Shown here: one piece after another, positions 19,227-25,096 of the stretch
Position numbering within the stretch: the stretch's first letter is position 1
Layout of the letters: each line of letters opens with the position of its first letter
Source of the DNA: a virus
Lineage: Duplodnaviria > Caudoviricetes
Direction: 5' to 3' (one strand)
Length of the DNA: 64,000 nucleotides
IMG/VR virus record: IMGVR_UViG_2903352716_000007
Location: 1-64,000 of that record
The notes under the pieces: model-generated
What the model was told of the DNA's origin: nothing
What the model saw: the letters and a program-made list of their open reading frames with translations, nothing else
The model's database searches: none
Program-made: the position numbers and the translations under genes

Positions 19227-20099
19227 TCAGCCCGTAGCCGTCAGCTTTGGTGAACGGGAGTGAATAATAAACTGCACTTCCCTTCCCTTCTTGACCTCGG
19301 AGAAATCCAAATAGCCTATCGACACCAGGTCAGCCATAGCGCGCCTTACGACAACGTTCTGGTCACACACGCGGGATTGCATCGCCAGGCGCTCGCGTAA
19401 GCGCTTCAGCGACACAAACAACGTGCCAGAAGGCATTGACTCAAAATAGATATACAGCGACTGAGCGGCCTCCTTACGAGACAATTCACTCAACGCCTTC
19501 AAGCCCAGCAACACCTTATGGTCGTAGCGGTACAATTCCCACAGGTTAGGATCGCCAACAATCTCTACCAGGTCAGTTTCTGTATCGAGCTTGGCCTTTT
19601 GCACAAGGTGCGTAACCATTGCCTTCTTACCGTCTTTAGACCGGAAGGACAGCGTGACGCTGGACAGGTTAAACATGGAGTCAAACAAGCGCTTACGTGC
19701 TCGCTGATTAATATCCGTTGGACGCAATCCGCACATCCGCGCAAACTCGGTAAACGGTAGAGTTATCTTCTCAGACGTGAAGCCATAAACGGAGAACGCG
19801 CTGATGATCCCAACCCACGTTTTAAAATCCGTGGACATGTTGAGTTTAGCGCCCTGAATTTTAATGTCCGTATAGCCTTCTCTACGGGCCACCTCAAGGC
19901 TGGAAAGTTCTTCTGAGGCATCTATGAGAAAATCACGCTTGCCGCGCTCACGTGGCGATACAGGCGTGAATACGCTAAGACGCAGCAAAGCGACCGGCTG
20001 AACCGTCTTATTGCTGTTAGGTGTCAGTTCATAAACTGTGTCTGAATCTTTTTTAGTGACAGCAAAAGGGCTGACGATCTCTTTGTTATTCAAAGACAT
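19227..20099 (-). CDS. repA: plasmid replication initiator RepA (P1/RepFIB family, p0111-type-like)
   Basis: NSNKTVQPVALLRLSVF, STDFKTWVGII, LWELYRYDHKVLL, IGYLDF. Confidence 0.92.
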   Translation of the reverse strand: MSLNNKEIVSPFAVTKKDSDTVYELTPNSNKTVQPVALLRLSVFTPVSPRERGKRDFLIDASEELSSLEVARREGYTDIKIQGAKLNMSTDFKTWVGIISAFSVYGFTSEKITLPFTEFARMCGLRPTDINQRARKRLFDSMFNLSSVTLSFRSKDGKKAMVTHLVQKAKLDTETDLVEIVGDPNLWELYRYDHKVLLGLKALSELSRKEAAQSLYIYFESMPSGTLFVSLKRLRERLAMQSRVCDQNVVVRRAMADLVSIGYLDFSEVKKGREVQFIIHSRSPKLTATG

Positions 20100-20105
20100 T
20101 CCTAT

Positions 20106-20366
20106 TTATCCACATAGGGCGCTTAAAAAACAAGCAAATTATGAAAGTGACCGTAATCGGATTATGAAAGTAGCCGTATTTATTATGAAAGTAAACGTAT
20201 TTATTATGATAGTGACCGTATTCATTATGAAAGTGACCGTATGATCTGCCTTTTTCGGTAGTTATATCAAATGGATACGGCATCGGTGATCTTTATTGAT
20301 CTTTTAATGATCTCTATTGGACTAAAAGAATTGATCTATCAGGTGGATAAGTGGGTAAGTGGGTAA
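20106..20366. other. plasmid origin oriR: DnaA boxes, iterons, GATC cluster
   Basis: TTATCCACA 20106; five ATTATGAAAGTGACCGTA-type iterons (20138, 20161, 20182, 20203, 20224); GATC at 20243, 20288, 20298, 20309, 20333; DnaA-like boxes 20342-20366. Confidence 0.88.
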
Positions 20367-20721
20367 GTCAGGTAACTCTGAACCAGGACATAGATAGTCC
20401 CTCAGGCTGGTGGGCATTGCAGAAAACTACGAGAAACCTTTGAGTTTTTGCAAAAATAGCGCTGCAGCATACGGCGCAATGTCTACATTCGCCAATGAAA
20501 TCATCACTCGATCAAATTTTCATTTTTTTTTGCGAATAATTGACATAGCCTCCAGGCCTTATAAGACGCGCACTTAGCGTTTCTTTCCCTTTTGCAACCT
20601 CAATTTAACCTCAAAATCAACTCTTGTACTGAAAAGAATCCTTACTAGAATATCCCCATATACAGGAAGTTATAGCAGTGGTAGGCGCAAGATATAGTGT
20701 TAAGTCCATCGAAGGGTCAGA

Positions 20722-20870
20722 AATGAAAAGGCCCAGTTGATGAGACTGGGCCTTTCAATCGGTATTAAGAGTTCGCACCTCTTTAACCGTGCCGAATGTA
20801 TCTGGCAGCTCCGTTAATCTTAACGGCATGAATGACGTCCTTCAAACTTTTTTGTTTGATAGACGGGTTC
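20722..20870 (-). ncRNA. candidate antitoxin RNA, 5' end unknown; may also encode a 24-aa peptide (20755-20829)
   Basis: Minus-strand terminator 20722-20756; contains the complement of a 21-nt stretch in the leader of the divergent small ORFs. Confidence 0.5.
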
Positions 20871-21032
20871 ACCACTGATTAAGAAGTAAATTTAGTTCCG
20901 GGTTCTTTGTGATGCTTGAACCTTGCTCAAACCAAAATTCGAGCCGAATGTATCTGGCAGCTCAGGTACGACAACTGCAAAGGAAAACCCAAGAGTGTTT
21001 GCAGCCAGGCGCGAAGAAAGTAAGGAACCAAC

Positions 21033-21119
21033 ATGCAGATGCTGCTGTTGTTTTTGAAGCTCGCGCACCCAGTGACGGTCATTGTTTTGACCTTGTTGGG
21101 ATTTTTTAAAGGCCGTTAA
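21033..21119 (+). CDS. small hydrophobic peptide A (28 aa), type I toxin-like
   Basis: MQMLLLFLKLAHPVTVIVLTLLGFFKGR; AAGGA 6 nt upstream. Confidence 0.6.
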   Translation: MQMLLLFLKLAHPVTVIVLTLLGFFKGR

Positions 21120-21143
21120 CACTGAAGCCTATGGAGGCTCAAA

Positions 21144-21221
21144 ATGGTGAATTTGTTGTTGAAGATCGTACCTTCAATAGTCGAGATTGCTATCGCGATT
21201 ATTGATTACCTAAACCAATAG
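21144..21221 (+). CDS. small amphipathic peptide B (25 aa), TisB/DinQ/ZorO-like
   Basis: MVNLLLKIVPSIVEIAIAIIDYLNQ; GGAGG 6 nt upstream; terminator 10 nt downstream. Confidence 0.65.
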   Translation: MVNLLLKIVPSIVEIAIAIIDYLNQ

Positions 21222-21230
21222 CCGTAAGAC

Positions 21231-21256
21231 AAGGCCCACGGATGTGGGCCTTTGTT
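21231..21256. terminator. bidirectional Rho-independent terminator
   Basis: AAGGCCCAC-GGAT-GTGGGCCTTTGTT. Confidence 0.75.
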
Positions 21257-21261
21257 GCCTG

Positions 21262-21540
21262 TCATACCTTTGCGGTCTTATCTTCATCAAAGAGTTGTGC
21301 TTTACATGCCGCTTTGAAGGTCAGACAAGAACGGCTGCGTAACGCTGGTGCAAATGCCTTTTCCAGTTCCTGTCTATCAAACCCATCTGCAGCAAACAAA
21401 GATATTTTCTTTTCAATACGTTCTTTGGCTTCAGATAGCTTTACATCTTTGTTATTACGTAAAAACCGTAAGATGTAGTCAGCAATAATACGAACCGGTT
21501 TAGTGACATTACGCTCAGTCTGGATGGCGGAATTACTCAT
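21262..21540 (-). CDS. hypothetical protein
   Basis: 92 aa, coupled to the upstream gene, ends at terminator. Confidence 0.7.
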   Translation of the reverse strand: MSNSAIQTERNVTKPVRIIADYILRFLRNNKDVKLSEAKERIEKKISLFAADGFDRQELEKAFAPALRSRSCLTFKAACKAQLFDEDKTAKV

Positions 21541-25080: not shown

Positions 25081-25096
25081 CTGTATATGTAAACAG
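25081..25096. promoter_or_regulatory. LexA (SOS) box
   Basis: TA-CTGTATATGTAAACAG-TA, matches CTGT-N8-ACAG. Confidence 0.88.

Follow-up and report, generated by a model that had tools for sequence, protein, structure and literature searches.

The region at about 20541-21256 of the window, the 64,000-nucleotide stretch of DNA analysed here, is best read as a mobile type I toxin-antitoxin module in which a divergent, trans-acting sRNA controls a toxin mRNA, a reading to which we assign a probability of roughly three in four. It would stand as a new sequence family within the tisB/istR-1-, zorO/orzO-, shoB/ohsC- and dinQ/agrB-like class. The family is apparently undescribed, and a literature search returned no paper describing it and no match for its peptide motifs; the architecture, with its divergent sRNA, is already known and does not constitute a new kind of system. 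The type I candidacy put forward in an earlier note on this DNA is supported by all of the computational tests run (co-variation, promoter, folds, selection), with toxicity itself a prediction, and the conserved unit proves larger than that note stated. Its elements are as follows.

20541..20623, plus strand: upstream conserved block, TTGACAT...AGGCCTTATAAGACG, weak hairpin and T-run, CAACCTCAATTTAAC...AAAATCA
20624..20651, plus strand: conserved promoter P2, hexamers kept across all groups
20658..20756, plus strand: putative RNA-U of ~100 nt, inferred from P2 and a two-way terminator
20722..20810, minus strand: candidate antitoxin sRNA, ~89 nt, with a common fold in 20 relatives and compensatory terminator pairs
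20791..20810, minus strand: sRNA seed, from the exact repeat, co-variation and a strand-specific wobble signature
20817..20845, minus strand: sRNA promoter, hexamers and spacing kept in 20 distinct relatives
20900..20927, plus strand: leader 5' hairpin and possible anti-SD, with compensatory stem changes
20939..21014, plus strand: leader junction, from consensus fold, covariation and shuffles
20943..20962, plus strand: predicted sRNA target site in the leader, from the repeat, co-variation and joint fold
21033..21119, plus strand: peptide A ORF, 15 distinct DNA versions, pN/pS 0.29
21126..21139, plus strand: inter-ORF hairpin, present in 10 distinct A+B relatives
21144..21221, plus strand: peptide B ORF, paralogue of A, pN/pS 0.38
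21231..21256, plus strand: toxin mRNA terminator, hairpin at the equivalent position in every relative

The source of the window is a diverged P1-like plasmid-prophage with ~80% identity to Citrobacter plasmids with tail, Dam and RepB genes; deposited phages offered no close match. The cassette sits just beyond a RepA/RepB-family gene (19227-20099, minus strand) and its iterons. These iteron-like repeats (TTCATAATGAAAGT-type units) occupy 20100-20290, immediately upstream of the gene, and are consistent with a plasmid origin. Relatives were collected by sensitive blastn with 20600-21300, which matched 119 of 72,556 PLSDB plasmids, 115 of 5,426 complete E. coli genomes and 3 phage records, two of the latter being E. 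coli LF82-type phage-plasmids. The exact leader-hairpin pattern added 28 further IMG/VR contigs and 2 genome contigs. Carriers thus comprise P1-like and E. coli LF82-type phage-plasmids together with conjugative plasmids of several enterobacterial genera. The flanking genes vary by site (RepB with phd, repA with a MobF relaxase, vapBC, Hha, S24 peptidase), showing that the cassette moves as a unit, untied to origins or phage-plasmids. Its placement beside a plasmid origin, as first described, therefore holds for the window and its closest relative and is not general, the cassette being specific neither to origins nor to phage-plasmids. None of the matching records annotates it. In NZ_CP074151.1 (L004, 1737-2090), an annotated 117-aa 'hypothetical protein' (KGP24_RS24060) spans the leader and both peptide ORFs, and is very probably a mis-call that masks real small genes.

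Central to the cassette is an exact 21-bp direct repeat, GCCGAATGTATCTGGCAGCTC, at 20791-20811 and 20943-20963, first pointed out in the earlier note and confirmed by direct reading. The 21-mer occurs exactly twice in the 64-kb window, against 0 expected, and the same two sites alone are recovered when up to three mismatches are allowed; 100 dinucleotide-preserving shuffles yielded zero 21-mer matches. A repeat search extends the similarity to 29 nt at 90% identity. Both copies are kept at the same two positions in 44 of 44 cassette copies compared, and the repeat sequence varies by lineage (e.g. GCCGTATGTGTCTGCCAGC, GTTGTTAACCGGCGAC and TAAGTATCTGGCGACT). Co-variation of the two copies had been named in advance as a test of the module, and it is found across 11 distinct pairs of sRNA copy and leader copy compared over a fixed 20-column core. 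Cognate pairs retain pairing at 19-20 of 20 positions, against a mean of 17.3 and a minimum of 11 for non-cognate combinations, with ~10 of the 20 core columns altered in both copies.

The differences that do separate the two copies of one locus are informative as to strand. Ten internal cases, representing 5 distinct site-and-type events, were recorded, and in all ten an A or C in the first copy corresponds to a leader G or T, respectively; opposite transitions number zero, and internal transversions are likewise absent from the set. Such differences keep a U-G or G-U wobble, and the pairing polarity is therefore that of a minus-strand transcript of the first copy on the plus-strand leader only. 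Counted over its 5 distinct events, this signature has a P of about 0.03 by itself. Neither gene conversion nor a DNA-binding protein would generate such an asymmetry. The sole recurrent mismatch between copies falls in the terminal column, which corresponds to the first base of the sRNA. Joint folding of sRNA and leader gives a 20-bp duplex at -83.5 kcal/mol, compared with -68.7 kcal/mol for the separate RNAs, a gain of ~15 kcal/mol. The first 20 nt of the predicted sRNA are thus complementary to 20943-20962 in a structured plus-strand mRNA leader. The perfect complementarity claimed for the whole repeat survives over those 20 nt and is lost at position 20811, which falls outside the probable sRNA: with a probable start at 20810, base 20811 becomes position -1, and 20 of the 21 nt pair.

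In the window, as in its closest relative, a RepA/RepB gene and iterons adjoin the cassette, and the direct repeats might instead be DNA sites for a protein, for example in replication or partition control at the adjacent origin, and not RNA partners at all. Protein sites would be expected to be conserved, however, whereas the repeat copies diverge jointly, and the differences between them all preserve RNA wobble in one polarity, an asymmetry that contradicts a DNA-site function. Moreover, the first copy begins exactly at a conserved transcription start, and in other plasmids the cassette lies away from any rep gene. We regard this explanation as very improbable.

Pairing between two RNAs, as favoured here, calls for a minus-strand transcript that starts at the first copy. 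The minus-strand unit ending at a terminator (20722-20756), proposed by the earlier note, is borne out by a conserved promoter, a shared fold and compensatory terminator pairs. Its promoter comprises a -35 element TTGAAG (20845-20840), a 17-nt spacer and a -10 element TAAGAT (20822-20817), followed by six bases and a start A at 20810, such that the predicted start coincides with the first pairing base. The same layout is present in 20 of 20 distinct relatives (TTGnnG, 17 or 18 nt, TAAGAT/TAAGCT/TAATCT, 6-7 nt), with diverging spacers. A consensus promoter scan missed it because 8 of 12 positions match and the scan threshold was 9. The predicted sRNA extends ~89 nt, from 20810 to a U-run at about 20722. 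Its 5' seed lies within a short GCC/GGC hairpin, followed by a second stem-loop and the terminator, a fold common to the 20 relatives despite sequence differences; in the second stem-loop the sequence varies among these relatives and the pairing is always kept. This fold was derived from per-sequence folds, RNAalifold having lost the middle hairpin through alignment shifts. The terminator hairpin (20726-20755) shows compensatory changes together with G-U pairs that work on the minus strand only. Taken together, these features point to an sRNA of ~89 nt transcribed from the minus strand by a conserved promoter. Rfam, searched over the whole window at gathering thresholds, gave no match.

The leader on which this sRNA would act is itself conserved in structure. 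At its 5' end is a hairpin (20900-20922) with a GGGTTC / GAACC stem that covaries between relatives and a conserved loop, TTGGTGAT. A possible anti-SD, CCTTGCT at 20921-20927, pairs with AGTAAGG at 21019-21025; the pairing is partly conserved: the window and some relatives have it, and mismatches occur in groups L003 and L009. When 17 distinct leaders were aligned, the consensus was a three-helix junction formed by a long-range helix (20939-20945 / 21008-21014), the target hairpin (20949-20954 / 20965-20970), which presents the predicted sRNA site in its loop and 5' strand, and a third hairpin (20975-20984 / 20995-21004). Across the 17 leaders, 98.2% of cells in the 23 junction pairs are paired, with 8 pairs changed on both sides; none of 500 shuffles reaches any of five measures, and slid partners are 29-50% paired. 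The 3' strand of the target hairpin varies in step with the seed classes, which implies that the same bases are constrained by two partners. The target site ends 70 nt upstream of the ORF A start codon. A single-sequence fold of the full-length mRNA was rejected as a basis for mechanism, being dominated by long-range pairs unsupported by covariation. In this fold the SD of A is not clearly buried, with a probability of being unpaired of 0.61 over 21018-21024 (overlapping AGTAAGG), so that the way in which pairing 70 nt upstream would block translation is drawn from analogy only.

Two further observations concern the DNA around the leader. The L027, L034, L019 and L003 loci contain 3-4 tandem units of ~11 nt (GAACGGTTTAG-like) located 30-80 nt upstream of the leader hairpin and absent from the window; their arrangement resembles that of phased sites bound by a toxin-promoter regulator. 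An inverted repeat of 14 nt (93% complementary) has one arm between the sRNA promoter and the leader (GTTTGATAGACGGG, 20854-20867) and the other in a downstream minus-strand ORF of 92 aa (CCTGTCTATCAAAC, 21369-21382), and could have arisen by chance.

Direct reading confirms the coordinates given above for the two tandem hydrophobic ORFs, their SDs, the inter-ORF hairpin and both terminators, all of which had been described from the window. Peptide A is a hydrophobic 28-mer with a basic C-terminus (KGR), preceded by the SD AAGGA (21022-21026), and peptide B is a hydrophobic 25-mer preceded by GGAGG (21133-21137); each SD ends 6 nt before its ATG. Conservation of the peptides, another test named at the outset, is seen as purifying selection with third-position bias. 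Differences by codon position run 764:378:1268 for ORF A (pN/pS 0.29 over 15 distinct DNA versions) and 835:389:1391 for ORF B (pN/pS 0.38), and both frames remain open, with third-position bias, at 66-86% DNA identity. On this sequence evidence both peptides are probably translated and retained by protein-level selection. The two peptides can be aligned with no internal gap and have in common, numbered by alignment column, K9, P13, I17, an acidic then an aromatic residue, and a C-terminal R28, identifying them as paralogues of one peptide family.

Immediately downstream of the shared leader, relatives carry A alone, a B-like ORF alone (E. coli LF82 group) or A+B; one group uses GTG as its start codon. 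The bicistronic occurrence in the window is one form of a conserved cassette family. Two peptides on one mRNA, the trait highlighted initially, is thus correct for the window as one layout and, given A-only and B-only relatives, falls away as a defining trait. Between the ORFs, beginning 6 nt past the A stop codon, AGCCT (21126-21130) pairs with AGGCT (21135-21139), enclosing part of the SD of B. This hairpin, AGCC(U)/(A)GGCU, is found in 10 of 10 distinct A+B relatives with an invariant stem, hence without covariation, and its position suggests translational coupling of B to A. The mRNA ends at 21231-21256, where every relative has a hairpin, each of different sequence.

Two features of the type I class have counterparts in the cassette: A and B are small hydrophobic proteins (<60 aa) encoded on the target mRNA, and the co-varying 20-nt complementarity corresponds to an antisense sRNA pairing with toxin mRNA, here as predicted from sequence. 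Short peptides afford little statistical power, and neither A nor B matched any Pfam or NCBIfam family at E up to 10 or the profile HMMs for Fst/Ldr, Hok, TisB, Ibs and ShoB. By exact look-up, 2 of 9 peptide versions are on record and 7 absent, none with a functional name; the four member entries of the two recorded peptides comprise three unnamed or 'hypothetical' proteins and one protein of 454 aa. Searches with tblastn placed the peptides in enterobacterial plasmids only, essentially never under an annotated gene.

The evidence up to this point covers RNA pairing and peptide selection only, and neither peptide matches a toxin family in Pfam or NCBIfam. The sRNA-mRNA pair could accordingly be real and the peptides benign or accessory membrane proteins, regulated by the sRNA in the ordinary way and acting, for example, in transporter modulation, superinfection exclusion or lysis timing. 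Their size, hydrophobicity and charged C-terminus and the long structured leader nonetheless fit type I toxins (PMC8309996), as do the dedicated divergent sRNA, the self-contained mobility and the vapBC and phd neighbours, and the near-complete lack of annotation is usual for the type I toxin class. A non-toxic function is unlikely on this balance, and the toxin reading is retained below.

The conserved unit extends beyond the two facing genes. The block at 20541-20623 is conserved in relatives from unrelated contexts and includes, at 20564-20592, a weak hairpin and T-run flagged as terminator-like. It is followed by P2 (TTGTAC, 16-nt spacer, TAGAAT; 20624-20651), whose predicted start, at about 20658, faces the sRNA terminator; in the E. 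coli LF82 group the promoter at this place reads TTGCAT-17-TATCTT. The RNA-U interval (20658-20756) is devoid of a conserved ORF, and its interior is poorly conserved. P2 would give rise either to a ~100-nt RNA converging on the sRNA or to a toxin transcript that begins here and reads through, and its conservation is not accounted for by a simple two-gene model. Neither a consensus scan nor an alignment anchored on the leader hairpin detected, in any relative, a sigma-70 promoter with a conserved -35/-10 pair for the toxin mRNA within 20811-20905. A duplex search for a site in the toxin mRNA that might partner the P2 RNA gave inconsistent, long artefactual duplexes and was discarded.

No plus-strand promoter of the cassette other than P2 is well conserved, and the interval from the sRNA gene to the leader contains none that can be recognised, which raises the possibility of a rewired arrangement: the toxin mRNA would start at P2 (about 20658) and read through the hairpin at 20730-20752, placing the sRNA gene within a ~370-nt 5' UTR. 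The sRNA would then be a full cis-antisense RNA as well as a partner for the second repeat copy, and cleavage of the long duplex would generate a shorter, translatable mRNA. The window's plus strand has just UUUC after the hairpin, and the extended part of the hairpin stem, with A-U and G-U pairs, forms on the minus strand only; 5' processing, moreover, activates other type I toxin mRNAs (PMC5397157, PMC7708055). Against read-through, the L010 and L013 groups have five plus-strand U after the same hairpin, a tract that would terminate most transcripts, and the arrangement gives no reason to retain a second, co-varying seed copy. It is possible, and appears doubtful.

A separate leader transcript with P2 as an additional promoter could also be accommodated in a cassette of three RNAs, comprising the mRNA of coupled paralogous toxins, the trans antitoxin sRNA and a P2 RNA that tunes the antitoxin, as an anti-antitoxin or through transcriptional interference, with the seed classes as recognition groups. 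The third RNA is predicted to run from P2, convergent on the antitoxin gene and overlapping its terminator. We put this forward tentatively, as an elaboration with a small chance of being right; if true, the diversified seed classes would serve in competition between co-resident plasmids and plasmid-prophages.

Among the closest characterised systems are zorO/orzO and zorP/orzP of E. coli O157:H7, which share a divergent sRNA of ~80-90 nt (PMC3919570, PMC5397157). In zorO/orzO, as proposed here, the sRNA uses its 5' end to pair with ~18-20 nt of a long, structured 5' UTR at a site far upstream, the hydrophobic peptide is shorter than 30 aa, and variation in the pairing stretch creates specificity classes (PMC3919570, PMC5397157). 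In contrast to zorO/orzO, the cassette resides on plasmids and phage-plasmids and is often bicistronic, and its peptides lack the ALLRL motif of ZorO. Identity of the sRNA with OrzO-P (RF02083) was rejected: the match of 23.1 bits (E 0.55) against a gathering score of 60 is at noise level, where one Citrobacter genome alone gives 25 matches at E up to 10, the best of 26 bits, and true orz genes score 99.9 bits. A leader profile (nhmmer) found no match in the zor loci, blastn found only chance matches of 10-16 nt, and the cassette search of 5,426 E. coli genomes matched no zor loci. In 2024, the Fozo laboratory described 18 plasmid matches with a zor-like 5' UTR before a 'dinQ' ORF (PMC11264685). 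Those matches may or may not belong to the present family; searches with the cassette returned no zor similarity. In an Enterobacteriaceae genome (G119; L054/L055), two tandem diverged orz-like sRNA genes, scoring 47-49 bits and below the Rfam threshold, lie beside a zor-like ORF of 33 aa; the arrangement suggests that a diverged zor/orz locus exists outside E. coli.

The tisB/istR-1 system of E. coli likewise pairs a divergent sRNA with a target that precedes the start codon by ~70-100 nt, within a structured leader that follows standby-site logic, and its mRNA carries an upstream ORF, tisA (PMC7708055). tisA is reported to be untranslated (PMC7708055), whereas both cassette ORFs are under protein-level selection, and tisB is chromosomal. 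The cassette also differs from tisB/istR-1 and dinQ/agrB in its lack of a LexA box, none being found in 20541-21256 with CTGT-N8-ACAG and 1 mismatch allowed. Elsewhere in the window, a perfect LexA-type box, CTGTATATGTAAACAG, at 25081-25096 is the only exact match and may mark an SOS-controlled promoter of the plasmid-prophage. With dinQ/agrB of E. coli the cassette has in common a divergent trans-acting sRNA, a membrane peptide of similar size (27 aa in DinQ) and a proposed refolding of the leader on sRNA binding. No profile or blastn similarity to the leader or sRNA was detected at the K-12 tisB/istR-1 locus, and no significant match at the K-12 dinQ-agrAB locus. Taken against the zor, tisB-istR and dinQ-agrAB loci together, sRNA and leader profiles gave nothing meaningful, the sole match (E 0.003 in a 13-kb search) covering a terminator. 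The comparison with tisB/istR-1 and zorO/orzO drawn by the earlier note is therefore sound as to architecture and does not extend to homology, which neither profile nor blastn searches detected.

Two peptides under one antisense RNA have a precedent in yonT-yoyJ/SR6 of the B. subtilis phage SPbeta, in which two toxin ORFs on one mRNA are controlled by a single antisense RNA (PMC5848175), and coupling of toxin translation to an upstream ORF is a feature of hok/mok/sok. Both systems, however, use cis-encoded overlapping antisense RNAs, whereas the cassette sRNA is predicted to act at a distant leader site. Nor are the yonT-yoyJ and hok toxins related to one another or to A or B, whereas the two ORFs of the cassette are tandem paralogues.

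In the mechanism we propose, the sRNA 5' end would nucleate on the loop of the target hairpin (UGGCAGCU), and pairing would zip along the 5' strand of the hairpin into the long-range helix to give the 20-bp duplex. Formed 70 nt ahead of the first start codon, this duplex would remodel the three-helix junction, and the remodelled junction may block ribosome loading in the style of a standby site, lead to RNase III cleavage, or both, by analogy with tisB/istR-1 and zorO/orzO (PMC7708055, PMC5397157). Peptide B would be translated only once ribosomes finishing A open the hairpin over its SD, and through this dependence of B on A a single sRNA could control both peptides. The peptides would insert in the inner membrane and depolarise it. 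At the level of the replicon, the cassette would stabilise its plasmid or plasmid-prophage, with cells that lose it killed or arrested, a role suggested by the neighbouring genes. Diversification of the recognition sequence into several classes would lessen cross-talk between co-resident elements.

The biological roles of divergent trans-acting type I systems are still debated. dinQ/agrB, which is of the same divergent trans-acting kind, was named after 2010; in that year the tisB, zorO and shoB class was reported from the chromosomes of E. coli and close relatives only, without plasmid homologues (Fozo et al., PMC2887945). The cassette would represent a self-contained, horizontally mobile version of a divergent trans-sRNA system, and as such a natural setting for testing stabilisation, exclusion or dormancy. 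Its natural seed variants and its A-only, B-only and A+B layouts provide material for studies of sRNA specificity, leader remodelling and translational coupling, making it of interest to RNA and plasmid biologists alike. Since only a few public records annotate the peptides, the plasmids that carry the cassette hold a probable toxin module missed by current annotation.
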